A stretch of 64,000 nucleotides of DNA. Source: Chloroflexota bacterium (lineage in GTDB: Bacteria; Chloroflexota; Dehalococcoidia; UBA2979). The notes beneath the pieces are model-generated. The model made no database searches. It saw nothing but the letters and a program-made list of their open reading frames with translations, and was not told the origin of the DNA. The DNA lies in NCBI GenBank assembly GCA_009839925.1, contig VXOS01000142.1:3039-67038 (forward strand), given 5' to 3'. Below are positions 8,213 to 64,000 of the stretch, one piece after another. Position numbers and translations under genes: made by a program. The number at the start of each line of letters is the position of its first letter. The first letter of the stretch is position 1.

Positions 8213-8233
8213 CGCGCCCTCCGGCTCACCGGC

Positions 8234-12903: not shown

Positions 12904-12911
12904 CCCGGCCC

Positions 12912-31598: not shown

Positions 31599-31641
31599 CC
31601 CTGCGCAACCCAGCACCCGGCGCAGCAGTACCCTCTTGACC

Positions 31642-41395: not shown

Positions 41396-41636
41396 GGCAC
41401 ACTCACCGTGTCTGGCACCGATCCCGGTCCGCCCTGGTCCCGATCGCCACGTGCACCAAGAAGGGACCGACCATGTCCGGCACGTAGGCCGCGCCTTCTG
41501 GTTGCGGTCGTGGCGCAGGAGAGGGGATCCAGCGTCTGGGGGTGACCGGCTGGCAGCCAGACCGCAGCGCATCAAACGGGACGTAGTCCTCCTCGTCGGA
41601 GGCAGCGCGTGCCGCCCGGACCGCCGAGACGCAGGC

Positions 41637-42275
41637 TCAGGCGCCGGCGATGTCGAGCGGCCAGACCCTCACGACCTTGCCGTCCTCGACCTCGAAGCGC
41701 CATTCATCCCCCTCCCGACACTCGCCGTTCGGGCAAATGCCGAGGAACCGCATCTCTCGCTGGCGGCCGGACACGCCGCGCAGCTCCGCGACGGGCTCGT
41801 TCGTCTGGTAGGAGTGGACGTTGGAGCCCGTCTCGCCCATGAAGTAGACCTGGAACTCGCCCTGGTACTCGGTCCCGCAGTGCGGACAGGTCACGTCGGC
41901 GAGCAGCATCCAGTACTTCTCGAGCTCCGCGAGTTCGTGCTCCAGATCGACCTCGAGCACGCTGAAGCTCGTCTCGATCGCGTCGGCCGGCGGGTCGATC
42001 CCCTCCGCGGCCAGCCTGGCTTCCATCTCCCCGCGGAGGGGATCAGCCAGGATCCGGGCGTGCTCCACCATCGCGTCGGCGACGGAGCTCGTTGCGGGCG
42101 GAACGGGGTCGCCGTCATCCATCAGGGCCTCGATGTGGATGGCGATGGCCTCGCGCATCATGCGGTTCATGTCCTCCAGGTCGTCGCCCACGCTGATGCA
42201 GCCGGGGAGATCCGGGACATACCCGCAGTAGTTCTCATCACCGCGCTCGTACACGACCACGTACTGGACCTTCAT
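41637..42275 (-). CDS. HicB-family N-domain fused to a C-terminal Cys-rich (zinc-ribbon-like) domain
   Basis: Start MKVQYVVVYERGDENYCGYVPDLPGCISVGDDLEDMNRMMREAIAIHIEAL (HicB/UPF0150 fold). C-terminus has CPHCGTEY...CPNGEC. Divergent from the STAND gene. Confidence 0.6.
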   Translation of the reverse strand: MKVQYVVVYERGDENYCGYVPDLPGCISVGDDLEDMNRMMREAIAIHIEALMDDGDPVPPATSSVADAMVEHARILADPLRGEMEARLAAEGIDPPADAIETSFSVLEVDLEHELAELEKYWMLLADVTCPHCGTEYQGEFQVYFMGETGSNVHSYQTNEPVAELRGVSGRQREMRFLGICPNGECREGDEWRFEVEDGKVVRVWPLDIAGA

Positions 42276-42429
42276 CGGGATTCTCCCTTGCAGTCCAGCA
42301 TGCCCAGCACGTTGCTGTGCGCCCCTCGGACGCCGCATCATCGGGGTCGGCATCCTAGCAGTTCGCCTCGGGGCGGTGACATGATACGGTTCAAATGTTC
42401 TAGAGGGAGCCAGAAGTTCCGAGGGTAAA

Positions 42430-48388: not shown

Positions 48389-51300
48389 CTAAGCTAGGCC
48401 GTCCGAGCAGACGATGCGGATCACCTCAGGCTCCGGCGGCCGGGCCGTCTCGGAATCGTCGGGGACGCTGAGGCGGTAGCGCTCGCGCAGGGCCTCGAGG
48501 CGGATGCGCAGCACTCGGCCCTCGAGCTGCAAGCTCCGAATCTCGCCGAGGGCGTTCTCGGCCGGCGGGGGCAGGTCGCCGTTGAAGATTCGACGGAGCA
48601 CTTCGAGACGCCGCATCTCAGCCGGGTCGTCGGCGGCGGCATGGACGGCAAGGTTGAGCTGCCGGGACATGTAGCGCCGAGCCCTCGTGTTGCGCGGCCG
48701 GCGGGCCCGGCCCAGCCGTTGCCCGAACTCCGTCCTGAACGCTTCGAACGCCGCCATCACGCGCTCGTTCGTGTCCTCCGAGAGCGCCTCCGCTGGCGTG
48801 TCGGGGGTGCACTCGGCGGCCGCGACAAACTGGGCGGGGCTGATGGGCCGGGGCTCGAGACCCGACCCCACGGCGTAGCAGCCATGCACCTCGCCGGCGC
48901 CGAGGAGCACCAGCGTCTCGCCGGGCACCGGGTCATCGAAGGCCGCCGGGGGCGCGGCCCGGATGTTCGCCGGCGACATTAGCGGAGCCTGCGCGCCCTC
49001 GAGAGGCATCACATCCTGCACGTAGATGTCGTCAGGGGCGTCCTCGCGCGCTGGCCTCGGCGCCCGCACGGCGAGAGCAGACCGGATGCCATCCGGCAGG
49101 GATGTGATGGTCTCCCAGAGCTCCGGGTTGTCTTCGCGGATCCGCTGGAGCAGGGCGACGGCGCGCTGGTGCGCGGCCACCTCGTCGAGCCCGTCGTCGG
49201 CCTCCGGCATGCGCTGCTCGCCGTAGATGCGGTACATCGCGTCGGCGTTCAGGCGCTCGGCCTCCGACAGGAGCCTGTTGTCGAGGCCGATCAAGTCGTG
49301 GAACGACTGGATACGGCGGCCCAGCCGCTCGGTCAGCTCCAGCCCCTCATCGACCGCGGTGTCCGGCCACATGCTGTGCAGGTCGATGACGTCGTGCTCT
49401 GTCCCGATGCGATCGACGCGGCCGAAGCGCTGGATCAGCCGCACGGGGTTCCAGTGGAGGTCGTAGTTCAGGACCCGCGCGCAGTCCTGCAGGTTCTGGC
49501 CCTCCGACACGATATCCGTGGCCAGCAGCACGCGGATCTCAAGGCCGGGAACCTGGCGCCCAGTGGTCAGGTTCGCGCGCGGCGAGAACCGGGTCACGAT
49601 GGTCTCGGCGTTGTCGCGGTTGCCGCCACTGAGGTGAGCGATCTCCGGGTCGTGGCCGCCGGGATTCAACTGCTCGTAGAGGTAGTCGATGGTCGTCTCG
49701 GCCTCGGAGAAGATGAGCACCTTGTCGGCACGGACCGCGGGCTGGTCGAGGAACTCCCGGAGCGCTCGGAGCTTGTCGTCGTCGTCCGGAGCGATGTCCG
49801 CTATCCGCTCGAAGAGGCCACCGAGCACCTCGTAGTCCGCGTCGAGATCGGCGATCCAGCGTTCGGTTTCGAAGTGCGCGGCAGGATACGCCGCACTGCG
49901 GGCGTGGCCGCGCGCCTCCTCCTGCTGGAGGACTTCCAGCAGTTCGTCGGCGTCGAACTCGTGACCCGCCAGGAGGCGGGTTGCCGTAGCGCCGACGGGC
50001 ACGAATCCGGCTTCCAGCGACTCCCGGAAGTTCCGGTTGCTATTGATGAGCGTTTCGAGCGTGGACCGGAACGCCGCGACGCTCGACTCGAGCCGCTTCA
50101 GGAGCAGCACCTTCATCAGGCCGGCGATCCGGTCCCTCGCGCGCAGCAGCCCTCGGTATTCGGCCCGCGTCTTGAAGTCGTCGCCCAGGTACTCGGAGGC
50201 GCGATACCGCGAGGCCTCGTGTTGTGCCAGCGCCTCCGTGATCTCCTGGAACTCCCCGGCCCGGGCGTACACGCGGTCAAGCCGGTAGTGGACATTCTCG
50301 AGCACTGGATCCGGGAAGCGCACGGGCTGGCCCCCGACCATCGCGGTATCGCCGTAGAGGTCGAGGATGTCGCGTCGCCGGCGGCGGATGAACAAGGGCG
50401 ACAGCACCTGCGTGATGTCGGCTCGCGGCACTGTTGGTTGTGATGGTGGCACCGGCGGCGTGCGTGTGGGGCGCTCTCGCTCCCAGGCCTCGTACTCGGC
50501 CTCGTAGTTGGTCTTTGCCGCGTGGTAGTCGAGCCAGCGTTCCGCGTTCCGGAAATACTCCTGCAGGTCGAGGGGCTCGATCGGCAGGCCGTGACTGGTG
50601 TCGTCCAGGAACAGGCTGAGCTGGCGGTAGATGTCCAGCGGGCCGAGGTTCTGGGGCGTGGCGCTGAGCAGCACCACCTTGTGGTCGCCGGACTCAAGGT
50701 ACTCCTCCAGGCCCGCGTAGCGCTGGTTTCGATTGCGGAAGTTGTGCGCCTCGTCCACCAGCACGGGGCCCCGGTCTGGGTACATCTGATTGAGGACGAC
50801 GCCTCGCTCGGGGGGCGCCGCGTCGATGTAGCGGCCGAGCTCCTCGTCGAACTCAGCCTCACCGGACGGGGCGATCATGCTGTGCGAGATCACCTCGGCG
50901 CCCAGCTGGAAGCGCTCGTTGAACGACTCCCACATCGGCTTCAGGCCGGCAGGGCAGAGGATGAGCGGGCGGCCGTCGTTCGGATAGCTGAACTGGAGCT
51001 GGCGCAGCAGCTCTGCGCCGATGAAGGTCTTGCCGAGCCCCACGACGTCGCCGATGTAGCAGCCGCCGTGGACATCGATCATCGCCAGACCGCGGCGTAC
51101 CGCGTCCAGCTGGAAGTTGGCCAGCTCACCGTCCTGCGGCTCGAGCGGTAGCTCGCTCGCCCCGGCGCCGCCGCTGTAGAGCTCGTGGAGGGCCTTCAGG
51201 TAGACGTGGTAGGGCGGCGTCTTCGCAAGCGCCCAGGAGAGCTCCAGCGTGACCTGCAACTCCTCGCTGATGTCCTCCGAGTCCTCCCAGAGGGCGTCGA

Positions 51301-51880
51301 ACCAGTCGCGCAGGGCGGCCATCTCAGCGTCGCCGGTGACCCGCACGTTGAGCTCGGTGTTGCCGCTGAAGCCGGCCAGCGTGAGGTTCGAGGAGCCGAC
51401 GACAGCCGAGCCGGGCTCGGCGTGGTCGTCGTACCAGCAGAGGTATGCCTTGGCGTGCAGCGGGCTGCGCCGGTAGGCCCGGACTTCCGCCTTGCCCGAG
51501 GCGACCATGTCCCGGAGCAGGCTCACCGCGTTCTGGGCGTCCTCCGTCTGCGGCAAGAGGGACACCCCGTCAGCGATGCGGTCGACGGAGTCCCGCGCCA
51601 CCGCGGCGCGCTCGCGCCGCTGCACAAGCCCATCGGAGTGCAGCCGCGCCCGCAGCGCGTCCGGCTGCTGTAGCCCCGCAGCGACCGCCTCGATCACCTG
51701 CCGGTCGGCACGGCCGACGAGGATGCGCACCTTGTCCAGCCGCGCCAGTTCTTCGCTGACCGCGCCGAAGCCAGACATGAAGAAGTAGCCGACGGCGATG
51801 TCGGCCCGGGCCGAACTACCGAGCATCTCCTGCAGCCGGGTCAGCAGGTCAGGGTCAGTGAAGGCGTGGAGGATGTTCAA
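48389..51880 (-). CDS. Phospholipase-D-family nuclease domain fused to SNF2/SF2 helicase (candidate ATP-dependent restriction or defence nuclease-helicase)
   Basis: 1,163 aa. N-terminal HKD motif PLHAKAYLC...VVGSSNLTLAG. Helicase motif I DVVGLGKT, motif II VLVDEAHNFRN, motif VI QRFGRVDRIG. Confidence 0.8.
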   Translation of the reverse strand: MNILHAFTDPDLLTRLQEMLGSSARADIAVGYFFMSGFGAVSEELARLDKVRILVGRADRQVIEAVAAGLQQPDALRARLHSDGLVQRRERAAVARDSVDRIADGVSLLPQTEDAQNAVSLLRDMVASGKAEVRAYRRSPLHAKAYLCWYDDHAEPGSAVVGSSNLTLAGFSGNTELNVRVTGDAEMAALRDWFDALWEDSEDISEELQVTLELSWALAKTPPYHVYLKALHELYSGGAGASELPLEPQDGELANFQLDAVRRGLAMIDVHGGCYIGDVVGLGKTFIGAELLRQLQFSYPNDGRPLILCPAGLKPMWESFNERFQLGAEVISHSMIAPSGEAEFDEELGRYIDAAPPERGVVLNQMYPDRGPVLVDEAHNFRNRNQRYAGLEEYLESGDHKVVLLSATPQNLGPLDIYRQLSLFLDDTSHGLPIEPLDLQEYFRNAERWLDYHAAKTNYEAEYEAWERERPTRTPPVPPSQPTVPRADITQVLSPLFIRRRRRDILDLYGDTAMVGGQPVRFPDPVLENVHYRLDRVYARAGEFQEITEALAQHEASRYRASEYLGDDFKTRAEYRGLLRARDRIAGLMKVLLLKRLESSVAAFRSTLETLINSNRNFRESLEAGFVPVGATATRLLAGHEFDADELLEVLQQEEARGHARSAAYPAAHFETERWIADLDADYEVLGGLFERIADIAPDDDDKLRALREFLDQPAVRADKVLIFSEAETTIDYLYEQLNPGGHDPEIAHLSGGNRDNAETIVTRFSPRANLTTGRQVPGLEIRVLLATDIVSEGQNLQDCARVLNYDLHWNPVRLIQRFGRVDRIGTEHDVIDLHSMWPDTAVDEGLELTERLGRRIQSFHDLIGLDNRLLSEAERLNADAMYRIYGEQRMPEADDGLDEVAAHQRAVALLQRIREDNPELWETITSLPDGIRSALAVRAPRPAREDAPDDIYVQDVMPLEGAQAPLMSPANIRAAPPAAFDDPVPGETLVLLGAGEVHGCYAVGSGLEPRPISPAQFVAAAECTPDTPAEALSEDTNERVMAAFEAFRTEFGQRLGRARRPRNTRARRYMSRQLNLAVHAAADDPAEMRRLEVLRRIFNGDLPPPAENALGEIRSLQLEGRVLRIRLEALRERYRLSVPDDSETARPPEPEVIRIVCSDGLA

Positions 51881-51892
51881 TGCTGGACCAGC

Positions 51893-52150
51893 CTAAGGTG
51901 GGTCGTTCCAGTGCGAGGCACGCCAGAGCACGAGTGCATCCACGACGCGCGCGCTGTGCTCCTCGGAGCCCCGATCCACGGCGGCGGCGTGGCGTCCGTC
52001 CCACCAATCATCTCCGACATCGAGCACGATACTCGTGACGGACACCCGCTCGGACTCGACGTCGTCGAAGCCGCTTTCGTACCCGTTCACAACCACGCGC
52101 AGGTCAGGCGGGTAGGTCGCCAGGAGCGTCATCAACTGTCGCACGTTCAT
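51893..52150 (-). CDS. Small hypothetical protein immediately upstream (12-nt gap) of the PLD-SNF2 gene
   Basis: 85-aa ORF with non-GC-artefact composition (MNVRQLMTLLATYPPDLRVVVNGYESGFDD...). Confidence 0.35.
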   Translation of the reverse strand: MNVRQLMTLLATYPPDLRVVVNGYESGFDDVESERVSVTSIVLDVGDDWWDGRHAAAVDRGSEEHSARVVDALVLWRASHWNDPP

Positions 52151-52563: not shown

Positions 52564-54750
52564 TCACGTGGGCGTACCGGGTCGGCGCTGTCGTTCTCTG
52601 GCGCTGCCGTCGATCCAGTCGTCGAGGGCCATCCGCTGTAGATCGCTGGGGACGAGATCTCCACCCTGAATCGCAGCGTTGAGTCGCCGACCTAGTGTCT
52701 TACCCGATTTGGTTCGGACACTCTCACTCACGGTGCGAGCCAACACGGACGTGTCGCTGACCGCCTCGAGAAAACCCGCTACGGGCCAATCCCGCTGCCC
52801 GAATGCCTCGACGAGTGCTCTTCTCAGGACTTGCCCTCTTCCGACCCCACCGCGACGGATGAGTCTCCGCAATGACCGCGGCGACCTTGGGAAGGCGCGT
52901 TTCAGCTTGTTCCAGTCATCATTACTGAGTCGACCTGCCTCGGCGGCGTCGTGGACGGTCTGGAAGACTTGGGCTACGAGGTGGCTCGCGGACGGGCGCT
53001 CATCGCCGAACCCAACGCCGAGTGCAAATGCACGAACCGAGGTCCCTGCAGCGGTGGAAGGGTCAGTTTGGTTGACGATCTCGCTCCAACGCTTGTTCTC
53101 AAGAGCACGGAGCCGCCGATCCCCCGGAGGGAACTGCTCGAGGACGAGCTTGGCGAGCGCTGTAGATGGCATCTCGCTCCTGCCAAGCCACAAAATGCCT
53201 CGCTTAGGATGTGTGCGCAGGGTTGCTGCCCATTCGGGACGCGCCGGCAGAACCTCCTCCTGATCCACGCGTTCCCCCAGCACGTCGAAGGCAGCTTCGA
53301 TCGCACGGCTCCCCAGTTCGCCAGCGAGGTCACTTAAGGCAACGGACGGCCCCGCAGCGATCACGGCACGCACTATCGCGACGATCTGAGAGTCATCCAA
53401 GTCAGCTCCACGGAGCCAGGCAAGAGCACGGGGCTTAGCGTTGTCCGATCTCCAGAGTGTCGGGTCCGCGACAATCGAAGGCCTGAGATCGAGTGCGCTC
53501 GACGTGACCACATCTGGCCACGACCCAAGGAGCTCAACAAACGTCTCGGTTTCGAGATCTTCGGCCGCGAGCCGCACGAGCGCATTGCGCGCATCCGCTG
53601 TCGCGAACGTTGGGAACTCTCGCAGGAACACCCGCAACTCTGGTTCATCGACTGACATCGCTTGCAGGAACGCGCTGCTCAGGGAGCGCCACCATCCGGG
53701 GAAGGCAGATCCGGCCGCCGAGCGCGACAGGACGGAGAGCCGATCCAGACTTGTGAGCGGTTCAGTGAGGCTCGATCCGGATTCGTCGAGTGCCCAAGAC
53801 TTCAATGCCTCGGCGGCCGCCCGTCGCGGATACCACGCACCGACCCTCTCCAGCAGCGACTGCCAATCAGTGCGATCCGACAGGCCCCGAGCGATCGAGT
53901 GAAGTTCTGCTACACGCCCGAACGACAACCGGTCGGGGGCAAGTCGCGGTCCGAATTGCCACGCGAAGTTCCTCAGCTCGCGCAAGGCGGCGGCATCTGG
54001 TCGAAGACCGGTGGCCCATGTAGCTGAGTGTGAGTGAGCGCGGTGCCCAGCACCCAGGAGGATCACCTCCTGAGCGGCGAGCCGCTCGATCGTCGTTGAG
54101 CGATCTTGAGGGATGACCTGTAGATCGAAGGGGCGGCCAGCGACTTGGCGGAAGGATAGAGCTCCAGTGCAGAACGAGAAGTGCTCGCGGAGCTCAGGCC
54201 ACTGAATGGACCAGACATCAAGCAGGACTTCCTCGTAGTCAGCGGCGGATGCCGCCGGCAGGAGAATCGCGTGATTCGCACTGTCGCTCTGGTACAGAGC
54301 TCCGATGATATCGGCTAGACGGATGTTGTTGTCAGTCGACTGCGAGCGTGTAGGCGGATGTGGAGGCTCAGCGATATCGTGTTCATCGATCTCAAGCGGG
54401 CTCCCGTACTCAATCGCCTGATCGACGGATCGCGGCCTCCGGAACCAATCCGCCAGACTCGCTACATTCGGCAGCGCGATCTGCTCAGGCGTGAGAAGCA
54501 ACGTATGGGTCCACACCGAACCCGGCCTTGCGCCACCGTCCGCCAACCACGTCCGCGCAAACGCGTAGAGGCGTTCGCCCGGCACCGGGTATCCCGATAT
54601 GTAGCTCTCGAACCCGCGAGTCCTAGAGGCCGACCCGGAGAGATCAGACAGCTCGAGGAGGGCTCGCTCCCCCTCCCTGGATAGCCGACGAGAACTCGCC
54701 AATAGGTCGTGCCCGCTGCGGTACCCATGGAGGGCTTGAGCGACTCGCAT
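52564..54750 (-). CDS. Large (729 aa) hypothetical protein, last gene of the tandem-GTPase operon
   Basis: Start MRVAQALHGYRSGHDLL chosen 22 nt after the GTPase stop (alternatives 54789 or 54822). Mostly alpha-helical, Leu/Ala/Arg-rich. No known motif. Confidence 0.5.
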   Translation of the reverse strand: MRVAQALHGYRSGHDLLASSRRLSREGERALLELSDLSGSASRTRGFESYISGYPVPGERLYAFARTWLADGGARPGSVWTHTLLLTPEQIALPNVASLADWFRRPRSVDQAIEYGSPLEIDEHDIAEPPHPPTRSQSTDNNIRLADIIGALYQSDSANHAILLPAASAADYEEVLLDVWSIQWPELREHFSFCTGALSFRQVAGRPFDLQVIPQDRSTTIERLAAQEVILLGAGHRAHSHSATWATGLRPDAAALRELRNFAWQFGPRLAPDRLSFGRVAELHSIARGLSDRTDWQSLLERVGAWYPRRAAAEALKSWALDESGSSLTEPLTSLDRLSVLSRSAAGSAFPGWWRSLSSAFLQAMSVDEPELRVFLREFPTFATADARNALVRLAAEDLETETFVELLGSWPDVVTSSALDLRPSIVADPTLWRSDNAKPRALAWLRGADLDDSQIVAIVRAVIAAGPSVALSDLAGELGSRAIEAAFDVLGERVDQEEVLPARPEWAATLRTHPKRGILWLGRSEMPSTALAKLVLEQFPPGDRRLRALENKRWSEIVNQTDPSTAAGTSVRAFALGVGFGDERPSASHLVAQVFQTVHDAAEAGRLSNDDWNKLKRAFPRSPRSLRRLIRRGGVGRGQVLRRALVEAFGQRDWPVAGFLEAVSDTSVLARTVSESVRTKSGKTLGRRLNAAIQGGDLVPSDLQRMALDDWIDGSARERQRRPGTPT

Positions 54751-54772
54751 CGCCTCGCCACCGCGACTGGTA

Positions 54773-55633
54773 TCACCCCGTATCGACATCGACGACCCAC
54801 CGGAGGGGCTCGGTAATGTCATGCGATTCTGCGTTCGCGTCGCGCGCGACGCGTATCCGCTCAGAAGCGCTGAGGAGGGACTTGAGGCGATCGCTGTCCT
54901 GAGGGAGCTCACCGCCCTGCGCGGAGACTCCGTAAACGCGAACATCAAAGCGCGAGTGGTCGTGGCTTCTCAGGAACTGATCAACCAGTGGGAGCTCCTT
55001 GGCCAACCACTCTGACGGGGTGCCTTGTTCTTCCACCAGATCCCACGCAGACACGATCACGGCGAGCCTGAAGTGTCCCGCCGCAATCTCCGTGCAAAGA
55101 AGCTGGAGTAGGTCGACGAGCTGCACGTCCGTCGGTACTTGCTCAGCGCTCCATTCACTCTCGGTTGGCGCGTCCGCCGCGCCAGATTCCTGAGATGGCA
55201 GTGCTTCCTCGCCCGCGATCTCCATTGCGTCGAGAATCGGCCATGGCTCGCTTGTCTCCTTCGGGTGAACGAAGAGCAACACGCCCGTGGAATCGTGCAC
55301 GTAGTCCCGGAAGCTAGTTGGCCATTGGCGATCCGCAAGGCTCCGCTTGATTGATTCGCCGGCGAGGTCGGGTACGACGATCTCAGTGATGGAGTCCGCG
55401 TCGCTGGGCTTGATTCTGATCGTGGCAATCTGCTCGGCGTCGATACTCGTTCGGTTGGCCACCTCGAACCGTAGCCAGCGACCCGTCAGGTCGTTCAGGT
55501 GGTCCACGGGCGCCTCCAGAACTTCTAGCTCGAGGGCGCCATCAACATCCCGGCTAACGATGACTTGCCACAAGGCTGCGAGGAACGTCGTCTTGCCGGA
55601 TGACGGCAGACCGACGAGCAACGCTTGGTGCAT
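54773..55633 (-). CDS. TRAFAC-class P-loop GTPase (GTPase 2 of tandem pair)
   Basis: 286 aa. G1 GLPSSGKTT, G3 VPDLAGES, degenerate G4 VSAWD. Start shares 1 nt with the upstream stop (TGATG). Confidence 0.7.
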   Translation of the reverse strand: MHQALLVGLPSSGKTTFLAALWQVIVSRDVDGALELEVLEAPVDHLNDLTGRWLRFEVANRTSIDAEQIATIRIKPSDADSITEIVVPDLAGESIKRSLADRQWPTSFRDYVHDSTGVLLFVHPKETSEPWPILDAMEIAGEEALPSQESGAADAPTESEWSAEQVPTDVQLVDLLQLLCTEIAAGHFRLAVIVSAWDLVEEQGTPSEWLAKELPLVDQFLRSHDHSRFDVRVYGVSAQGGELPQDSDRLKSLLSASERIRVARDANAESHDITEPLRWVVDVDTG

Positions 55634-56529
55634 CAGTCGACCCTCTGCGGCGGGCGAGACCGAAAGCGATCGAATTCGCGCACCTCTTGGACCCCGGGGG
55701 GCAGAGAGGCCTCAAGCGGTCGGCGAGCGGAACGAAGCCAGATTCGGAGGACTTCATCCAGGTTCTTCCCGCGGCACAGCTCGGAGCCAGATTCCGGACG
55801 AGCCGCTGTCCAAATGAACTGAAGCTCACCCGTGCGGGCCTCGTGCTTGCGGCGGATCTCCTCTTCGAACCTCTTGACGAAGTCCTCGAGTTGATCAGCG
55901 CCGTCTCCCCTCAACGCTGCGTCCCACTTCGTGTAGATGACCGACTTCACAGCTCTATCGACGCCCGCGTCGAGAATGCTCTGGATCAACATTTCGGTTT
56001 CGTGTTGAGCCTCTTGCCGCAGTGCTTGTGTTCCGAAGCGCTCGCCATCCACAAGGAAGGCGATGTGGTCAGCCCGGTAGAGAAACGGGTGTGCTCTGGC
56101 TGTCTGTACGTCGTCCCGCATCGCTCGGAACTCCTCGCCTGGCCAATCGGCGATCAAGATGTCTCGCGCTGGCGCCACGCCGTCGTGGGCGGCGAGTCGG
56201 AGATGCAAGAACACGTCGCGGTCAGCGAGAGGCGTCCTAGGCGTCTCTGGGGTCGCCCGGCCGGAAGCTATCCGCGCATGATGCGAGCGCTGCTCGAACC
56301 CGTGAAGCGTTCGGGACCACGCGTATTGATGGCCAGCAAACGGGCCCTGAAGGAATTTGCCGTATATCTCGGTAAGCAACGTCGTCTTCCCGACGCCAGC
56401 GAGGCCCACGGGGATAATGACTCGCGTTACTGAGGAACGGGTGGTCTGGTTCGCCTCCTCGATTGTCAGTGCGTCCGCAGACGGTAGCGCGACGAAGCCC
56501 GCCGCAGTGTCGTTCGGAGTCATGGCCAC
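55633..56529 (-). CDS. TRAFAC-class P-loop GTPase (GTPase 1 of tandem pair)
   Basis: 298 aa. G1 GLAGVGKTT, G3 IADWPGEE, G4 YTKWD. Confidence 0.7.
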   Translation of the reverse strand: MAMTPNDTAAGFVALPSADALTIEEANQTTRSSVTRVIIPVGLAGVGKTTLLTEIYGKFLQGPFAGHQYAWSRTLHGFEQRSHHARIASGRATPETPRTPLADRDVFLHLRLAAHDGVAPARDILIADWPGEEFRAMRDDVQTARAHPFLYRADHIAFLVDGERFGTQALRQEAQHETEMLIQSILDAGVDRAVKSVIYTKWDAALRGDGADQLEDFVKRFEEEIRRKHEARTGELQFIWTAARPESGSELCRGKNLDEVLRIWLRSARRPLEASLPPGVQEVREFDRFRSRPPQRVD

Positions 56530-56541
56530 GTCCTGCCCCAG

Positions 56542-57654
56542 CTAGGAGTTGCCAAGGCACCGGGTGAGCAACAGTTCCCGTAGGAGCTGCAGCCCGACTT
56601 CCTCCGGAGCGTCAGCGAAGTCCGCCCCGAGCCCCGTCCGGTCCCGAAGTGCCTGATTCCAATCTCCAGCAGCAGGTGTCTCGCCCATGATCCGCAAGCC
56701 AGCAAGCAGCGGCAAGACGTGGCCTGGGGCCTCTTCAGGTAAGGCGGCCGTCGCCGAGTCTCGCCAGTCCGGGGTGGTTGCCTCCATGGCTTCCGCGACG
56801 GTGAGTTGTATTGGCGCCTCCCCTTCGGCAGACGCCAACGCGTGTCGCAGATATTCGATCGAAGCCGTCGGCGGCACGTCGTGTGTGACAAGGCTTGCCA
56901 GCTCATAGGCTGAAGGGAGGACCAGTCCCTGGGGTGACGCTTGTCCGCGTGGCCTGCTCAACTCTCGTGAGTAGTCGTTGATGACCCACCAGAGAATATC
57001 GTTCTCTTCCGAGAGCGCAGCTAGGCTCTGGACTAGTTGATTGCGAGCAGTGACGTCGGACGCCGCAACGTTCTCGAGGCGCTTCGCGAGGTTCGAAACA
57101 GCGCCGTTCAGGGCTGTCACCGCTGCTGCGTAGTCATTCTGACCGAGCGCCTCCTCGACCTGGTTGGACAGCTTGGTTCCCACACCCATCTGAGCAGGAG
57201 TAAGGGCGGACGTATGCAGTGGTTCCTCGTGGGGCCGGATGCTCACCGCTCGACGGCTGAGATAGTCGTGCGCGAGGGAATCCAGATCGGGTGTCGCTTC
57301 CGGTGCGCGGTCGCCGAATGTGCCGGTAGCCACGCAGAGCGCTGCCGTATCGGTAGCCAGTCCTTCCTCTTCGAACAACGCGACGATCGTCGAGGCCGCG
57401 AGAACCTGCATTTCCGCGTCGTTGTCGATCGTCGAGAACGCTACATCGCCGCTTTGGAGCACCCCAGATATCTCCCGAAGCCACTCCTTCGGAGCCGATG
57501 CAGCCGCAACGGCGCACGCCGAGAGACGGAGCGCCCTCTGTGGCTCCGTGGTCCAGCGAGCCAATGCCTCGACCGCCCCCCATCGGCTCTCGGCGACCTC
57601 GCTCGTCAGACCTACGTTCACACCTCCGAGCCAGTAGGAAAAATGTTGATGCAT
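56542..57654 (-). CDS. Hypothetical 370-aa protein (GTPase-operon component)
   Basis: All-alpha composition. Start ATG shares 1 nt with the upstream stop. Confidence 0.5.
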   Translation of the reverse strand: MHQHFSYWLGGVNVGLTSEVAESRWGAVEALARWTTEPQRALRLSACAVAAASAPKEWLREISGVLQSGDVAFSTIDNDAEMQVLAASTIVALFEEEGLATDTAALCVATGTFGDRAPEATPDLDSLAHDYLSRRAVSIRPHEEPLHTSALTPAQMGVGTKLSNQVEEALGQNDYAAAVTALNGAVSNLAKRLENVAASDVTARNQLVQSLAALSEENDILWWVINDYSRELSRPRGQASPQGLVLPSAYELASLVTHDVPPTASIEYLRHALASAEGEAPIQLTVAEAMEATTPDWRDSATAALPEEAPGHVLPLLAGLRIMGETPAAGDWNQALRDRTGLGADFADAPEEVGLQLLRELLLTRCLGNS

Positions 57655-58262
57655 CAGGTTGCTGCTCCAAGTCCATCCGGCGGTCGGTCGGGGATACCCT
57701 TGCTCTCTTGAGCCGTCTCGCTCCAGAGCTCCGCGAGCCGATTAGCTGCGCGGGCTCGCTCGAAGACCGCACGCGCAAAGCCCTTGCGAGAAAGAGCGTC
57801 GTCTCCCTCATGGAAGAGGTCAAGACGGACTGCGATGGCGCGACGTGTCGTGCTCGGCAGTGCCAGGAAAGCGTAGGCAAGCCTCGTCCGGGGCGGGGCG
57901 GCCTCAAGCTGCTCCTGCAAACTCTGGATCGCATCCTCTAGCGCTGCGCACACGCGCTCTGCCGATTCTGCAACGACGGCAGCAACACTAGGCGAGACGC
58001 TTCGGCCGTGGGCTACGGGGTCCGTCGCTCCGAGCACGTCGCGAATCGCGCGCACAGTCTTCGTGTCAAAGCCACTCTGAGACTTCAGCACGTTGAGGGC
58101 GGACTCGGATGATCCGAGGCGATGCCTATCGGGAGCGAGGTAGCTCGCCAACCACTCGAGGCGTGCCTCAATCGCCCTCCGAGCGAGGACCAGAGCCACC
58201 TCCGGCTGGTCGTCCAGTTCCAGATCTCGGAGTTGGAATGAGGGGAGCTGCGGTCTAACCAT
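57654..58262 (-). CDS. Hypothetical ~202-aa protein (GTPase-operon component)
   Basis: Start MVRPQLPS overlaps the upstream membrane-protein stop by 8 nt. A longer alternative start lies at 58346. Confidence 0.45.
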   Translation of the reverse strand: MVRPQLPSFQLRDLELDDQPEVALVLARRAIEARLEWLASYLAPDRHRLGSSESALNVLKSQSGFDTKTVRAIRDVLGATDPVAHGRSVSPSVAAVVAESAERVCAALEDAIQSLQEQLEAAPPRTRLAYAFLALPSTTRRAIAVRLDLFHEGDDALSRKGFARAVFERARAANRLAELWSETAQESKGIPDRPPDGLGAAT

Positions 58263-58629
58263 CCCCGTCCTCGTCTTCCCACTCCGAGCCCAACGGAGGA
58301 AGCTCGAGGGTCGGCACCGCCTGCGTGATGCCCTGCTCCGCAGCACGACCCGACTCGCGCGTCCCTTCAGTGTTGAATTCGACTACGCCCCCGCCAGGGA
58401 GCAGCAGCCTTTGGGCGAATGGAAGGAGCGGTGCGACAAGCAGTCCCGCGAGCAGCATGAGGGTTTCGGTCGTCGGCTCGACTTCCTTACCGAAGTCGAG
58501 CGAGCGTATGACCACCGACGCGGCGAACAGAGTTACGGCCAACGCCCACACGAAGTAGATCCACCCGAGGAGCTTCCTGAGCCATCTAGGGAATTCGGCT
58601 AGTCTTAGCACGTTTTCCGGCTCTCCCAC
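58255..58629 (-). CDS. Small membrane protein (2 TM), first gene of the GTPase operon
   Basis: 124 aa. LLGWIYFVWALAVTLFAASVVI and LMLLAGLLVAPLLPF hydrophobic helices. Confidence 0.45.
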   Translation of the reverse strand: MGEPENVLRLAEFPRWLRKLLGWIYFVWALAVTLFAASVVIRSLDFGKEVEPTTETLMLLAGLLVAPLLPFAQRLLLPGGGVVEFNTEGTRESGRAAEQGITQAVPTLELPPLGSEWEDEDGDG

Positions 58630-58808
58630 TCGTTCCCGAGTCTACGTGGCACCTGAATGCCCTGGCTAGGCGTACTCACCACGGAGGAGTGATCCAGAGC
58701 TGGCGGAAGCGAGGTCGCCGAGCGAGCAGTGGGGACGACGCTATGGTACCACCCGAGCCATCCGGCGGGGGAGTGCATACGTGCGCGCTTCGTCGCGTAG
58801 ACGAACTC

Positions 58809-59249
58809 CTAGGCCCAACCCCGCCGCAGGATCTGGATGAAGCGCTCCGCCTTGAACGCCGGCTGCTCGGAGGTGCGATCCCAGAAGCAACTGATCTTCC
58901 CCAGGGGCCACCGCACCGCCCGGAGCCAGCGAGCGGCCCGCGACGAGCTCGCAGGTACTCGGCTTGCCGGGTCAGGACAGGTCCTTCCGCGCAGGTCGGG
59001 CCAGAGTTCGGGCGGGAGGATCCTGGCGATGGCGGCCCTGATTCGCTCGTCGAGGTCGCGCCGCTCCTCGTGCGCCCAGGCTTGGGGGCCGCCGTCTGCG
59101 GCGACGACGCCGAGGCCGAGATCGACGAGCAACCGAAGCGTCTTGGCGTAGTCGCTCTCGCGGAGCCGCGCGAACTCGGCTATTGCGGCGTGCTGAGCCT
59201 CCGAGATACGCAGGCCGACGTGGTGCGGGTACCGGGACTGCCGTGTCAT
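58809..59249 (-). CDS. Putative ribbon-helix-helix-like DNA-binding protein upstream of the GTPase operon
   Basis: The N-terminal 45 aa ([36 protein letters not shown]) resemble CopG/RHH. The remainder is low-complexity, so the true C-terminus may be shorter. Confidence 0.35.
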
Positions 59250-59586: not shown

Positions 59587-60429
59587 TCACGCGGATCCTT
59601 CGAGTCGCGGGGTTTCGAACGACACGCCGAGTTCACACCTGGCCAGGAGGACCTGCTCGCGGACGCTGTCCCACTGTTGGAAGGCCTGCTCGATTGTCAG
59701 ACGGCTCTTCGCTCCGGAGGGACTTTGACCGCTCGCCGGATTGATGTAGCCGGGGAGGGAAACGGTTGGCCTGGCGAAGCGCGCATCCGGGCGTGCAGCA
59801 TCACGGCAGGGGACGTACGAGTACATCCCCTTCATTGGCTTGTCGAAGGTGGCGCCCCGGTAGAGTGTGAACCGATACTCGCCGCTCCCGTCGGTAGTGA
59901 GAGACTCGATGGTGCAGACGCGAAACGCCTCGTCGGTCTCGGGAGGGTGGTGCGGGGCGTAACATTCGGCCTCCTCGACGACGAATACCGTGTCGAGAAC
60001 GAACTCTCCGCGAAGCTTCGAGCCGAAGAGGATCACTGATCCCGGCGTCAGCTCCTGCAGGGCGGACGGGTTCTTGTAGCTGGTCAGCTGCTTGCAGTTG
60101 CTGTATCGGAAGGCCTCGCCGAAGACCCATGGATCCGTGTTCAGGCGGTAGTTCGATGTCGGCGGGCGCTCCCAGACCGGAACCTGGAGTGCCCGTGGAA
60201 GCTGCCCCTCGCGCGGCCACCGCTCAACGACCCAGGAGGGTGCCTCCCACTCTCCCCAGAAGACGAGGGGCTTGCCCCTTGCCTGCTCCTGCGAGTCCAA
60301 GGAGCGCCCGGCGCTGAGGAGGAACTTCCGCCCGTGATCGCCCGTGTTCCACGGCATCCGGTCGCCATGGCGAAGGATGCGCTCGCCGCCCGGATGCGGG
60401 AACTGCACCACGAAGACCGAGGCGCTCAT
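59587..60429 (-). CDS. Hypothetical 280-aa protein, ATGA-coupled to the upstream 253-aa gene
   Basis: Start MSASVFVVQF. No recognisable motif. Confidence 0.5.
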   Translation of the reverse strand: MSASVFVVQFPHPGGERILRHGDRMPWNTGDHGRKFLLSAGRSLDSQEQARGKPLVFWGEWEAPSWVVERWPREGQLPRALQVPVWERPPTSNYRLNTDPWVFGEAFRYSNCKQLTSYKNPSALQELTPGSVILFGSKLRGEFVLDTVFVVEEAECYAPHHPPETDEAFRVCTIESLTTDGSGEYRFTLYRGATFDKPMKGMYSYVPCRDAARPDARFARPTVSLPGYINPASGQSPSGAKSRLTIEQAFQQWDSVREQVLLARCELGVSFETPRLEGSA

Positions 60430-61187
60430 GAGCTGCTGCTTCTCTGCTGTCGTGCCACGCTCGCGACCCACGCAGCGAGGCGGCTCTTGAACTCATTGGT
60501 CACACCGCGACTGCCCTGCAGGTTCGTCGACCAGCCCACGTACTGCACCCCTTCGCCGTCCCCCATGTAGAGCGAGCACGTCGTGTGGCCCATCGGCATC
60601 GTTCCGCAGTCGCTCAGCTCCACCAGCCCGACGGACTTGACGTGGTCCAGCACCTGGCGGCCGTTAAGCAAGACAAGGGTGGTCTTGCCGAAGGTGAACA
60701 GCGCCCGGAGGTGTGGCAGCCCCTCGGCCAGGAGCTGCTCCCTCGTGCGCTCGGCCAGCTCGCCCCAGATTGGGTCCGTCGCCCATTGAACAAGATCGAG
60801 GTGGCAGGCGCTCCCGGTGTAGTAGCTTGCGCCGACGCTGGCGCGGAGCACCATGTCGAGCGAGTTGAACCACCGGCCGTAGGGGTTCCTGTCTGCGTCG
60901 AAATAGCGCGCACAGTCCTCGACGACCTCCAGCACCTGCGCGTCGGTGAGTGATTCGAGACTCTCGGCGCCGAGCGATCGGAGGGTTGCGAGCCGGCGAG
61001 ACGACCCGTCGAGGAGCTTCCCGCGGCCTAGGAACTCCCGCAAGCTCGGATTGATGCCCAGCGTGGCCACGGTGGCGACGAACGGATCCCCGAACGCGAC
61101 CACAGGCGTCGATTCCGGTACGACCTCCGCGACCGGTGCCTCTCGGCGGACCATGTCGACGAGGTACCTCGGGATAGGTGGTGTCAT
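60426..61187 (-). CDS. Hypothetical 253-aa protein, possibly uracil-DNA-glycosylase-superfamily fold
   Basis: VVAFGDPFVATVATLGINPSLREF resembles the MUG/TDG GINPG motif. A weak second motif lies near WSTNLQGSRG. Low confidence on the fold. Confidence 0.5.
   Translation of the reverse strand: MTPPIPRYLVDMVRREAPVAEVVPESTPVVAFGDPFVATVATLGINPSLREFLGRGKLLDGSSRRLATLRSLGAESLESLTDAQVLEVVEDCARYFDADRNPYGRWFNSLDMVLRASVGASYYTGSACHLDLVQWATDPIWGELAERTREQLLAEGLPHLRALFTFGKTTLVLLNGRQVLDHVKSVGLVELSDCGTMPMGHTTCSLYMGDGEGVQYVGWSTNLQGSRGVTNEFKSRLAAWVASVARQQRSSSS
60961..61055. repeat. ~95-bp direct repeat, copy 2 (inside the 253-aa gene)
   Basis: See copy 1. Confidence 0.55.
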
Positions 61188-61278
61188 CGTCAGCGCCTTG
61201 CTAGGCGGTCACTACCCGCGATGCGGTGGTCCATCTCCGCTGGCAGCATGATGACGCTGAAGACGTCAAAGAGGTGGC

Positions 61279-63978
61279 TCAGGGCAAGCTGTGCTCGACA
61301 GCCGCCGTCTCCTCTGTTGTCAGGCCGTACAGGTCGTAAACGAGCCCGTCTAGCGTGCGCTCCCACTCGTTCACGTCGGATCCTGCATCCGACGCCTTTG
61401 CGTCGATGATGCGGTCCACCAACTCCACGAACGGCCGCTGCTCCTCTACGCTAATCCGCGGCACAGGGATTGGGGCGACCGTGAGGCGCTCCCACTGGAT
61501 GAGCCCCATACCTGTGGTGAATGCGGTGCGTTCCATGAACCACTTGACAAGCGTACTGTTGAGAATCGCGGCAAGGTACTTCAGGGAAGGACCCGTAAGA
61601 ACATACCCTTTCTGGTTGCAGAACTCGTCGCTGTCCGAGTACGCGAACCGCCCCTCCGGTGACATAGTCGCCCAGAAGAGTTTCGGATTCTCGAAGGCCC
61701 GATATGCACCCGATCTGTAGTAGTCAACCTGAAGTTGCCACCAGTCATACGGTACGCGCCCCGTCCGAGGATTCGCGCCACCTCGGCGGCTCGCGAGTCG
61801 CTCTTTGTGAGTGAGTAGGTGCCTGCGTACTGCCGGATAGTCGTGCTCAGCCACCCCACTGTGACTGTAAATCAGCCACTTGTCCGCCCACTCCGCCTGC
61901 CAGCGACGGATGTCGCGACCCCGCAGAATCGGCTTGATGATCTCCGCCGACTTAGGATCCTCGACGACGAGGGCGTCTCGAGCGGCACTGTCGATGATGA
62001 ATGCCTCGTTGTACCCGGTCTTGATGCCATAGTTGAGCTTGACGCCGTCCCACTGCGCGAGCGGCGTCCCACGTGCACTCATCTTCGCCATCACCTCGTG
62101 CTCGGTGAGCGAGAGGATGCTCCACGGTGCCTCGGGTTCCGTGCGAATGAGGCCCCAGTCCTCCTCGGGTGGCGGGAAGGCGACTCCGGGCACTCGATCC
62201 ATGTCGACTGCGGGGAAAGGAGTAGACTCGCCTCCGGTGCGAAGCAGCAACACACCGCTGTCGACGATCGCGCTTTCGAAGACGTCCTTGCCGAGGTCGA
62301 GCCAGCGCAGCGGCTTGTGACTTCCGGCGAAGAAGCGGCGCAGGCGCTTACCGTAGGCCGCGCGCATCCAGCTGTTGGAGGTGATGTAGGCCAGTACCCC
62401 ACCGTCGGGCTTGAGCAGATCGCAACCGCGCTCGTAGAACAACTGGTAGATGTCACCGCTCCGAACGAAGGTCGTGTAGCCGGCGTCGCGATAGAGGTTG
62501 GCGAGCCGCCCGCCGTCGCGCTGCAACTGGTGGTACGGCGGGTTGGCGAGCACAATGTCAAAGCCGCCACCACGTGCGTCGCGGGCCTCGAACACCTCCG
62601 GGAAGGCCGAACGCCACTCGACGCCGCCGCCGGCGTCCGCCGCTCCCGAGCCGCCGTAGCGCTCCCGCAACCTGCGGTTGATTTCCGCGATCTGTGCGCG
62701 CAGAGCCGCCTTGGCGGGTCCGGCGAACTCGTGCATGTAGCGCGCCTTGAGCTCCTGCAGCTCCACTGTCTGGTCCCCGAAAGTCCCTTGGACGCCGCCC
62801 TCCCCTCCGTGCGCCGCCAGCAGGCTGTCCCCTGTCAGGATCCCTAGATCGAGGTTTGGTAGCGGCGGAACGGGCGGGGGGCCGTCGTACTCGATTGCGA
62901 GCGACAGCCACAGCCGCAACTGCGCGATGTGGACAGCAAACGGATCGATGTCCGCGCCGCGCAGGTTGCGCTCGATGATCTCGAGCTTGAGCGTATGGAG
63001 CGACTTGTCGTCTGCGCCGACGTTGAACAGCACGGTCTGGAGTTCGACCAACTCCTGCATCATCCCGAGCAGGTAGGCGCCGGAGCCGCAGGCCGGGTCG
63101 ACGACCGTAACCTCGCTCAGCGCGTCCGCAACCTTGCGCGCCGCCGGGACGTCTATGTCGTCGGTACGGTGCTTGTCCACGAATGCGGCGATCGCGTCGG
63201 GTGTTAGTCCGGTGTCGCGCGCATCGAGGTAGCCCTTGAGCGCCTCGCGGCACATGAACGACACGACCTGCCGCGGCGTGTAGTAGGAGCCGGACTGCTG
63301 GCGGCCCGTCACCAGTTCCTCGAAGACCTTCCCAAGCATCTCGGGATCGACGGCCACCTCGATGTCGAAGGGAGTCGACTCCATCACGGTGAAGTTGAAG
63401 CGCTCGAACAGGCTGGTTAGCACAGCCTCTACGGCGTCGTCGGGCACCGTGACGCCCTCGCGATTGTCGAGGTCGCCCTGCTCGAACAGACCGCCGTTGA
63501 GGAATTGGACCTCGCCGATCAGCGGGTTCGTTCCGTCCGTCAAGTCGCGGGAGTCGGGGTTGTTGAGCCCCACAAAGAACAGGGTCCTGAGCCGACTGAC
63601 GTGGAAGTTGTCACCCTCGCGGTGGTTCTGCCGGTAGTCGTTCCACAGCGCCTTGAGGTAGTCCGTGTCACCGCGGAACTTGAGCCAGCCCTTGCGCTGC
63701 AGGAAGTAGACGAACATCAGCCGGTTGAACAGCGTCTGGACGAACAGCCGACGCTCCTCGTCCTCGCCCTCGGCAAACCCCGTCACGCTCTGCTCGACCT
63801 GCTCGAAGACCCGCTTGTACTCCTGGAAGAACCGCTTGGTGACGGGCTCGACATCGAAGGCCTCGGTGAGTGCAACGCGGACGCTCCGGGTGTCCCGTGG
63901 ACCCCTGTAGATCTTCGAGAGCTGTTCGACGGGAGTTCGATTGTGCTCGCCACGCTCGAACACGAGGCGCCGCAGCAC
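61279..63978 (-). CDS. N6-adenine DNA methyltransferase, PglX/Eco57I-like (type IIG/BREX-type gamma-class). The N-terminus may extend beyond the window end.
   Basis: 899+ aa. N-terminal helical FxxxFNRLMFVYFLQRKGWL region. SAM motif VVDPACGSGAYL. Catalytic LANPPYHQL. The large C-terminal region serves as target-recognition domain. No stop occurs before the window edge. Confidence 0.85.
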   Translation of the reverse strand: MLRRLVFERGEHNRTPVEQLSKIYRGPRDTRSVRVALTEAFDVEPVTKRFFQEYKRVFEQVEQSVTGFAEGEDEERRLFVQTLFNRLMFVYFLQRKGWLKFRGDTDYLKALWNDYRQNHREGDNFHVSRLRTLFFVGLNNPDSRDLTDGTNPLIGEVQFLNGGLFEQGDLDNREGVTVPDDAVEAVLTSLFERFNFTVMESTPFDIEVAVDPEMLGKVFEELVTGRQQSGSYYTPRQVVSFMCREALKGYLDARDTGLTPDAIAAFVDKHRTDDIDVPAARKVADALSEVTVVDPACGSGAYLLGMMQELVELQTVLFNVGADDKSLHTLKLEIIERNLRGADIDPFAVHIAQLRLWLSLAIEYDGPPPVPPLPNLDLGILTGDSLLAAHGGEGGVQGTFGDQTVELQELKARYMHEFAGPAKAALRAQIAEINRRLRERYGGSGAADAGGGVEWRSAFPEVFEARDARGGGFDIVLANPPYHQLQRDGGRLANLYRDAGYTTFVRSGDIYQLFYERGCDLLKPDGGVLAYITSNSWMRAAYGKRLRRFFAGSHKPLRWLDLGKDVFESAIVDSGVLLLRTGGESTPFPAVDMDRVPGVAFPPPEEDWGLIRTEPEAPWSILSLTEHEVMAKMSARGTPLAQWDGVKLNYGIKTGYNEAFIIDSAARDALVVEDPKSAEIIKPILRGRDIRRWQAEWADKWLIYSHSGVAEHDYPAVRRHLLTHKERLASRRGGANPRTGRVPYDWWQLQVDYYRSGAYRAFENPKLFWATMSPEGRFAYSDSDEFCNQKGYVLTGPSLKYLAAILNSTLVKWFMERTAFTTGMGLIQWERLTVAPIPVPRISVEEQRPFVELVDRIIDAKASDAGSDVNEWERTLDGLVYDLYGLTTEETAAVEHSLP

Positions 63979-64000
63979 GGGCCGTGTACCAGTGAGGTCG

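Follow-up and report, generated by a model that had tools for sequence, protein, structure and literature searches.

What does a bacterium do with two divergent GTPases encoded next to one another among genes of no obvious housekeeping role? The question is raised by a 64,000-nucleotide (nt) stretch of Chloroflexota DNA (from contig VXOS01000142.1; hereafter the window), whose source is a metagenome contig (ENA ERZ23491722, SAMN12347673). In a listing of its open reading frames (ORFs) from 50 to 64 kb, six minus-strand ORFs follow one another in the same direction, overlapping or closely spaced, from 58611 or 58629 to 52564. They encode, in the order of transcription, a small membrane protein with two transmembrane helices (the 2-TM protein), a 202-amino-acid (aa) protein with a GAAD domain, GASH, DO-GTPase2, DO-GTPase1 and GAP1 (Table 1). 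In our reading, to which we give a probability of about 0.6, these six genes constitute a single operon encoding a GAP1-N1-type DO-GTPase conflict system, which most likely acts against phages or other mobile elements by abortive infection, through the mechanism set out below.

Membership in a predicted GTPase-centric conflict system

The Pfam models for GAAD (PF19976), GASH (PF19994), DO-GTPase2 (PF19993), DO-GTPase1 (PF19975) and GAP1-N1 (PF20012) derive from the work of Kaur, Burroughs, Iyer and Aravind (eLife 2020; PMC7159879), in which a 'GAP1-N1-containing GTPase-centric subsystem' was predicted computationally. That subsystem comprises two DO-GTPase genes with a Walker-B Glu, a downstream GAP1, GASH and a variable effector, often coupled via GAAD (PMC7159879); coupling can also occur via EAD1 or by fusion to GAP1, and GASH is the marker that distinguishes the N1 subtype from the N2 subtype. 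Five of the six window proteins match the five models, all exceeding the curated cut-offs. The locus has the five core families in the canonical order, the Walker-B Glu in both GTPases, GAP1 downstream and a GAAD protein at the effector position. Because both families and composition are as published, the resemblance to 'double-GTPase plus GTPase-associated protein' systems that a first-pass annotation had proposed is supported, and the locus is a genuine member of the GAP1-N1-type DO-GTPase systems in every core respect.

It is at the same time a variant. The GTPases of the window lack a zinc ribbon, the host is a Chloroflexota metagenome-assembled genome (MAG) whereas the published hosts are mainly proteobacteria, bacteroidetes and spirochaetes (PMC7159879), and the effector, a HEPN-fold domain plus a novel 2-TM protein, lies outside the types listed there. 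The kind of system is already known, solely as a computational prediction, and its families are already defined in Pfam. None of the six proteins has a match in PADLOC-DB v2, apart from a spurious P-loop match to AriA (E = 0.047), or in PHROGs and NCBIfam. Sequence searches of the PDB with DO-GTPase2, GAP1, GASH, the upstream RHH-like ORF discussed below and profiles of DO-GTPase1 and the GAAD protein returned nothing meaningful. Literature searches found no experimental study of the DO-GTPase system family; nothing in a corpus of 8 million papers or in the PDB contradicts the earlier statement that such systems lack experimental characterization.

Gene structure and limits of the operon

Six minus-strand genes with tight junctions had been described in the first-pass annotation. 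All six ORFs are present, and the successive overlaps and gaps measure 8, 1, 12, 1 and 22 nt. For the 2-TM gene the ORF stands, but its start is probably 58611 and not 58629, as had been assigned, because the gene callers and sequence conservation both begin there. For GAP1, one gene caller favours an alternative start (ATG 54789, giving 741 aa). The operon is not a product of chance, because five of the six proteins match Pfam families with E values of 3e-12 to 1e-67 and the 2-TM protein has relatives with conserved synteny.

An ORF does lie ahead of the operon at 58809-59249, as had been noted. Neither Pfam nor the PDB supports its identity as a ribbon-helix-helix (RHH) protein, and searches of PADLOC, PHROGs and NCBIfam returned no match for it. 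As a part of the system we reject it, since a hidden Markov model (HMM) search of 82 loci found it solely on the window's own contig; the ORFs at 59587-61187 and 51893-52150, likewise restricted to that contig, were also rejected. A comparison of flanks revealed no flanking gene common to the Chloroflexota loci. Given that the flanking ORFs are contig-specific and that Chloroflexota loci share no flanks, we take the unit to be the six genes from 2-TM to GAP1.

Two DO-GTPases with conserved GTPase motifs

Both GTPases had been called TRAFAC-type. This holds, and Pfam assigns them more exactly, the upstream one as DO-GTPase2 and the downstream one as DO-GTPase1. The motifs quoted for them earlier, GLAGVGKTT, DWPGEE and TKWD in the first and GLPSSGKTT, DLAGES and SAWD in the second, are present as given. 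DO-GTPase2 (PF19993, E = 6.7e-38) has the P-loop GLAGVGKT, a Walker B motif DWPGE with the Glu typical of the family, and TKWD; the corresponding patterns GxxxxGKT, DxxGE and [TS]KxD are kept in most of 74 loci. DO-GTPase1 (PF19975, E = 9.5e-68), for which 1422 homologues were found at E <= 1e-5, combines the P-loop GLPSSGKT with a candidate switch-I Thr62, D89xxG92E93, SAWD at the NKxD position and SAQGG. Residues G8, G13, K14, T16, T62, D89, G92, E93, S195-D198 and A238-G241 are invariant in its alignment (A1), in which the Walker B Glu, E93, is retained by all 25 sequences.

An N-terminal zinc ribbon is absent from both proteins: the 45 residues before the DO-GTPase2 P-loop contain no Cys, and DO-GTPase1 begins at its P-loop. 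The Chloroflexota clade as a whole lacks the ribbon, and CxxC pairs ahead of the P-loop are also missing from 74 related DO-GTPase2 N-termini. A zinc ribbon on one GTPase is typical, not universal (60% of DO-GTPases; PMC7159879), and given this figure its absence departs from the typical description without being defining.

Conservation of gene order across phyla

A scan of one genome per species yielded 196 confirmed relatives, and 80 loci were fetched. Iterated HMM searches with the six window proteins were run against all ORFs of these loci (82 loci in the counts; labels such as L003 denote single loci). The order [X-GAAD]-GASH-DO-GTPase2-DO-GTPase1-GAP1, on one strand, recurs in ∼70 of the 82, in Chloroflexota, Acidobacteriota, Planctomycetota, Verrucomicrobiota, Proteobacteria, Elusimicrobiota, spirochaetes and others. 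GAP1 lies directly downstream of the GTPases in 81/82 loci, and GASH is present in 76/82, always between the GAAD gene and DO-GTPase2. The closest genome in GTDB is Chloroflexi bacterium SB0661_bin_44, with Tepidiformaceae and Dehalococcoidia more distant, and a 'Chloroflexi bacterium' MAG at NCBI encodes an identical copy of the 202-aa protein.

A clade-specific cassette at the effector position

The 202-aa protein carries GAAD at residues 127-183 (PF19976, E = 2.7e-12). Its N-terminal 124 residues are found in only 32 clusters in a database of 5.8 billion proteins and are always fused to GAAD. An AlphaFold2 (AF2) model built from 30 homologues (predicted local distance difference test (pLDDT) 86; predicted template modelling score (pTM) 0.77) places four helices in the N-terminal domain (residues ∼10-121), arranged up and down as in the HEPN fold, and the best structural matches of this domain are HEPN toxins and Csm6. 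Sequence searches of Pfam and the PDB matched it to no HEPN family. The canonical Rx4-6H motif is absent: the segment reads A-T80-D-P-V-A-H85-G-R87, with no Arg 4-6 residues before the His and Thr80 occupying the Arg position. All of 30 close homologues share His85 and Gly86, and nearly all share Arg87; helix-1 residues Arg28, Glu32 and Arg34 are nearly invariant with distant members included. Two distant lineages (L084, which has Arg, and L092) carry Arg or Asn in place of His85; both keep the 2-TM partner. Because the canonical dyad is missing and His85 is not universal, the predicted HEPN fold possibly serves a non-catalytic function.

HEPN is not mentioned among the effectors of this subsystem in PMC7159879, which lists calcineurin phosphoesterase, PNPase, TIR, SLATT, trypsin, caspase, alpha/beta-hydrolase and glycosylase, with the calcineurin-like phosphoesterase as the commonest. 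In our set, 45 of 69 GAAD proteins bear a calcineurin-like phosphoesterase; the window protein bears the HEPN-fold domain instead.

The first gene of the cassette encodes the 2-TM protein, whose pair of hydrophobic helices precedes the conserved motif APLLPFAxxLxLPGGG and a ∼45-aa acidic tail. The protein matches no Pfam family at E <= 0.1, SLATT models included, and SLATT identity was rejected on this ground. An exhaustive phmmer search of 1.84 billion sequences returned 13 cluster representatives (50% identity), 12 of them genuine; the remaining one, a 1776-aa 'homologue' (P0157), is a repeat-protein artefact. Wherever a contig extends far enough to reveal neighbours, the 2-TM gene lies directly upstream of a GAAD gene of ∼200 aa, a linkage that persists down to 31% identity of the 2-TM protein, and GASH and both GTPases usually come next where the contig continues. 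Across the loci, a 2-TM ORF was found ahead of 6/6 genes for a short HEPN-like GAAD protein, as against 0/62 genes for other GAAD proteins. The membrane protein is therefore specific to one effector variant and not a general partner of the GTPase pair, contrary to the co-occurrence that the first-pass annotation had suggested looking for. Because the 2-TM and 202-aa genes are so strictly linked, we treat them as one cassette. It occupies the effector slot, and the operon holds no other candidate effector.

Other arrangements were seen at this position. A second class of GAAD proteins (315-380 aa), with an N-terminal domain of ∼250 aa that has no Pfam match, is another effector type; it is found mostly in Verrucomicrobiota and Acidobacteriota (L015, L016, L019, L022, L024, L033, L037, L039, L062, L069, L073 and L078). 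Three systems (L010, L011 and L032) have a GAAD-only protein of ∼90 aa. On a 3-kb contig (L084, 957-1930), a 2-TM gene 31% identical to that of the window and a 203-aa GAAD gene are followed by a convergent, unrelated Cys-rich gene, not GASH; this copy may be an orphan effector cassette separated from the core.

A predicted longin/DENN-like module in GAP1, and fast-evolving partners

GAP1 matches GAP1-N1 (PF20012, E = 8e-26) at residues 4-97 of 728 and has 119 homologues. Its AF2 model, from 77 homologues (pLDDT 92, pTM 0.81), consists of an N-terminal alpha/beta module (residues ∼1-230) and an alpha-solenoid (residues 244-722). GAP1 is described in PMC7159879 as built of three globular domains (N, M and C); in the model, one long solenoid follows the N-terminal module, and Pfam shows no GAP1-M, GAP1-C or other domain. 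In the model, strands (b) and helices (a) of the module follow the order bb-a-bbb-aa, which is the topology of longin domains, and similarity to longin/DENN proteins was evident in structural comparison. The leading matches, each given with its two match values, were an Asgard longin domain (8.3; 120), the guanine nucleotide exchange factor (GEF) domain of DENND1A in complex with Rab35 (8.2; 215), TagF of the type VI secretion system (8.1; 199), NPRL2 (7.7; 147), the longin domain of Lst4 (7.4; 103), NPRL3 (7.1; 116) and Npr2 (7.0; 155). DENND10, C9orf72, FLCN, Mon1, TRAPPC2L, LAMTOR3, Ykt6 and FNIP2 ranked lower. GAP1 has no sequence match to PDB chains.

The N-terminal module is also the conserved part of the protein, with Y50, W68, R75, H82 and P106 invariant in the alignment. 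Co-evolution and direct contact of GAP1-N with the GTPase pair were inferred in PMC7159879; given that inference and the conservation of the module, a longin/DENN-like domain fits the genetics.

GASH (PF19994, E = 6.9e-18, residues 27-366) is all-alpha. Between Chloroflexota relatives it is 38-58% identical, among the two lowest values of the six proteins. GASH and the GAP1 solenoid are the fastest-evolving parts, and the GTPases change least, a pattern that would be expected of a conserved switch coupled to a sensor or scaffold that diversifies. L004 has an additional GAP1 gene (3847-6060), an orphan that lies upstream of an intact system and on the other strand.

Mobility and decay

The closest genome (L003) shares only 57393-52598 of the window, at 86.5% DNA identity, and its flanks are unrelated. 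There (8102-13038, with a DO-GTPase1 95% identical to ours) and in L005, the 2-TM gene, the GAAD gene and the 5' end of GASH are missing; in L006, DO-GTPase2 is fragmented. A census of flanks covered 105 large ORFs, those nearest to the system in 58 loci. It included seven phage-type integrases together with recombinases, transposases and TrbL; several proteins of the DrmD/BrxH/PLD-helicase type were also present, as were methyltransferases, a reverse transcriptase and PDC candidates. The mixture is reminiscent of mobile elements and defence islands. The family is carried by 23 of 72,556 plasmids, 17 of them conjugative. A complete metallophosphoesterase-GASH-GTPase-GTPase-GAP1 set (L089; NZ_CP056434.1, 23174-29294) is bracketed by IS26 copies on a Klebsiella pneumoniae plasmid from wastewater, which is conjugative and of type IncFII/IncR, where it is annotated 'metallophosphoesterase, GASH, hypothetical x3'. 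Similar plasmid copies were found in Aeromonas salmonicida, Pantoea, Rhizobium and Burkholderia.

A proposed mechanism, and its alternatives

We propose that DO-GTPase2 and DO-GTPase1 would act as a nucleotide-dependent switch, probably as a heterodimer. GAP1 would dock on them via its conserved longin/DENN-like module and control GTP loading or hydrolysis; since this fold is used by eukaryotic GEFs and GTPase-activating proteins (GAPs) of small GTPases, the module probably sets the nucleotide state. Within the module, the invariant Arg75 might supply an arginine finger, as the analogy with FLCN and NPRL2 suggests. The fast-evolving GAP1 solenoid and the all-helical GASH might serve as sensor and scaffold for a cue derived from the invader. 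Switching would then shift the position on GAP1 of the GAAD adaptor in the 202-aa protein, so that the clade-specific 2-TM and HEPN-fold cassette is released or activated; most likely the membrane would be permeabilized or depolarized and the infected cell stopped. What the analysis shows is the gene structure, the family membership, the conserved order, the exclusive link between the 2-TM and HEPN-like genes, the predicted folds and the island setting; the functional steps, the defence role included, are inferred from these.

The family matches, the conserved gene order, the 2-TM linkage, the predicted GAP1 fold and the evolutionary rates speak for a conflict system of this kind. In addition, the core is constant and the effector is swapped. 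Mobility and patchy distribution point the same way, as seen in the unrelated flanks, the frequent integrase, transposase and defence-helicase neighbours, the plasmids and the decay in the closest genome. Finally, the operon sits in a defence island that also holds an Avs-like STAND gene, an HKD+SNF2 gene, a type IIG restriction-modification gene and a TPR-PIN gene.

Several points weigh against this reading. The defence function rests on guilt by association, because no experiment was found for any member of the family. A promoter and terminator scan detected none, with counts no higher than in shuffled sequence. The flank census has no genomic background control, and viral contigs yielded a single weak relative (28% identity). 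The 2-TM protein could be a mere anchor, as it matches no known pore-forming family, SLATT included, and the missing Rx4-6H motif and the substitutions of His85 bear on the other half of the cassette. The GAP1-N1 subtype is not associated with multicellularity (PMC7159879), and the published model is generic only: the DO-GTPases act as a conformational switch of the complex, which GAP1 coordinates with sensing (PMC7159879).

A rather unlikely alternative keeps the system and exchanges the roles within the cassette: the HEPN-fold domain itself would be the effector, either as an atypical RNase or as a toxin that binds nucleotides, and the 2-TM protein a membrane tether, inhibitor or antitoxin. 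In PMC7159879, the TM components found in 67% of systems were read as action near the membrane, not as killing by them, which would suit this role. The structural matches to HEPN toxins and Csm6 also favour it, as do the constancy of His85, Gly86 and, nearly, Arg87 in the 30 close homologues and that of Arg28, Glu32 and Arg34 even in distant members. However, the Rx4-6H dyad is absent, with Thr80 at the Arg position; His85 has become Arg or Asn in two distant lineages that retain the 2-TM partner; and the 2-TM protein is conserved as well as the GAAD protein and has a conserved cytoplasmic motif of its own. Many HEPN domains are, moreover, non-catalytic. Less likely again, and distinctly improbable in our view, is a role outside immunity, either as a membrane-proximal GTPase signalling or regulatory module (like MglA/MglB or Rag nutrient signalling) or as a module that stabilizes mobile elements by addiction. 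Small-GTPase partners of the longin/DENN and roadblock types classically have regulatory roles, and the GAP1 module is predicted to resemble longin/DENN regulators; carriage on conjugative plasmids and beside integrases fits addiction as well as defence. Sporadic distribution with unrelated flanks is hard to square with such a role, however, and so are the loss of effector genes in close relatives, the embedding among bona fide defence genes and the hypervariable effector joined to a constant core, which is typical of conflict systems. As for the idea that the GTPases are ribosome-assembly factors of the Era/Obg/EngA type with unrelated neighbours, it can be considered refuted. The MMR_HSR1 matches on which it would rely (E = 0.012 and 0.065) are below the cut-off, in contrast to the strong and specific DO-GTPase1 and DO-GTPase2 matches (E = 1e-67 and 7e-38). 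NCBIfam offers no equivalog, the flanking genes lack conservation, the pair keeps a fixed linkage with GAP1, GASH and GAAD across phyla, and the genes are absent or decayed in close relatives. Housekeeping GTPases of the Era/EngA type were rejected on these grounds, and the earlier judgement that this is not a housekeeping arrangement stands.

Within the conflict-system reading, a bolder version is possible, and we hold it only tentatively. GAP1 would be a true prokaryotic GEF or GAP of longin/DENN type, acting on a heterodimer of paralogous GTPases, and the resulting immune switch would gate a novel pore-forming 2-TM effector through a catalytically degenerate HEPN-GAAD adaptor. Such a system would be a bacterial counterpart, and possibly an evolutionary relative, of Rag-GATOR1/FLCN or Rab-DENN logic.

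Comparison with known regulators and effectors

In predicted fold, the first ∼230 residues of GAP1 most resemble eukaryotic and Asgard longin/DENN regulators of small GTPases (DENND1 with Rab35, NPRL2/3 of GATOR1, FLCN-FNIP acting on the RagA/C heterodimer, C9orf72-SMCR8, Mon1-Ccz1) and bacterial TagF. As with Rag and GATOR or FLCN, the partner of GAP1 is a pair of paralogous GTPases, and the model places the invariant R75 on a loop of the longin-like sheet; both FLCN and NPRL2 employ arginine fingers. Unlike these regulators, GAP1 has no detectable sequence similarity to the group, and the DO-GTPases are a separate TRAFAC family, not Ras-like as are Rag, Rab and Arf. The likeness seen in the model may be convergent or very ancient, and we do not claim membership.

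The 202-aa domain shares with HEPN toxins and effectors (MNT-HEPN, Csm6/Cas13, HepS) a predicted four-helix fold and a conserved motif at the junction of helices 3 and 4, where HEPN active sites lie. It differs from them in lacking Rx4-6H, in a His85 that is not universal and in being fused to GAAD, not to a sensor or an MNT partner. Its genetic coupling to the 2-TM protein can be likened to Cas13b-Csx28, in which a HEPN nuclease is paired with a small membrane pore protein. SLATT proteins, the predicted pore-forming 2-TM effectors of some DO-GTPase systems (PMC7159879), are likewise small two-TM proteins encoded within a DO-GTPase operon. The window protein is unlike them in having no SLATT profile match and in accompanying a HEPN-like adaptor, not a nucleotide-generating enzyme.

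DO-GTPase systems form a large predicted prokaryotic immune family for which we found no experimental data, structure or entry in a defence catalogue. The present locus is a compact, intact example with a minimal effector, which makes the question of how a GTPase switch gates an effector tractable. The fold predictions supply candidate residues, namely Arg75 of GAP1, the P-loop lysines, three residues in the HEPN-like domain (His85, Arg28 and Glu32) and the PGGG motif in the 2-TM protein, and the homologues on conjugative plasmids of Klebsiella, Aeromonas and Pantoea offer culturable, tractable hosts. If the longin/DENN reading is true, it would connect a conflict system of bacteria with the way in which regulators of small-GTPase signalling are built in eukaryotes.

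Genomic surroundings of the operon

The G+C content falls at ∼31 kb, from ∼0.68-0.75 in the first 31 kb to 0.62-0.69 in the second half of the window, and this drop marks the start of the island that holds all the defence genes. No tRNA, Rfam match or tandem repeat was found anywhere in the window. The neighbouring defence genes named in the first-pass annotation proved to be an Avs-like STAND protein, an HKD+SNF2 protein and a type IIG restriction endonuclease-methyltransferase (REase-MTase), as it had said (Table 1).

Table 1. Positions of the operon genes and of neighbouring genes in the window
Feature	Position	Strand	Details
2-TM membrane protein gene	58255-58611	(-)	GTG start 58611, 118 aa; alternative GTG 58629, 124 aa
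GAAD protein gene	57654-58262	(-)	ATG, 202 aa; 8-nt overlap with 2-TM gene; GAGGA upstream
GASH gene	56542-57654	(-)	ATG, 370 aa; 1-nt overlap with GAAD gene (TGATG)
DO-GTPase2 gene	55633-56529	(-)	GTG, 298 aa, 12-nt gap after GASH; with ATG 56523, 296 aa and 18-nt gap
DO-GTPase1 gene	54773-55633	(-)	ATG, 286 aa; 1-nt overlap with DO-GTPase2
GAP1 gene	52564-54750	(-)	ATG, 728 aa; 22-nt gap after DO-GTPase1; GGCGAGG upstream
CoiA_N-domain protein	31537-32730		
TPR-repeat protein, C-terminal PIN-TPR-GreABC domain	32809-36660	(+)	1283 aa; PF20698, E = 2.9e-12; no PADLOC match
357-aa protein	41355-42428	(+)	no Pfam or PADLOC match
Avs1b-like STAND/NACHT, N-terminal PD-(D/E)xK nuclease	42430-46806	(+)	1458 aa; PADLOC SAVED_PDDEXK E = 3.5e-18, Avs1b E = 6.5e-17
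486-aa protein	46803-48263	(+)	4-nt overlap with STAND gene; no Pfam or PADLOC match
HKD(PLD)+SNF2 fusion, DrmD-like, with preceding 85-aa ORF (51893-52150)	48389-52150	(-)	1163 aa; PADLOC C3a139 'HKD+Snf2', E = 5e-51
Type IIG REase-MTase	within 59587-64000	(-)	cut by window end; 1237 aa in L001; PADLOC E = 2.7e-136
Two overlapping genes after REase-MTase	60426-61187 and 59587-60471	(-)	253 aa and 294 aa, respectively; no family match; this contig only

The PIN-TPR-GreABC domain is another computationally predicted component of conflict systems. The Avs1b-like STAND gene is the centre of a plus-strand block of three genes with tight junctions (41355-48263). The HKD+SNF2 gene lies immediately downstream of the operon, and a similar protein of 1164 aa is encoded right after GAP1 in an unrelated Acidobacteriota locus (L039, 13082-16573); its position next to GAP1 in two loci may reflect coincidence or a loose association.

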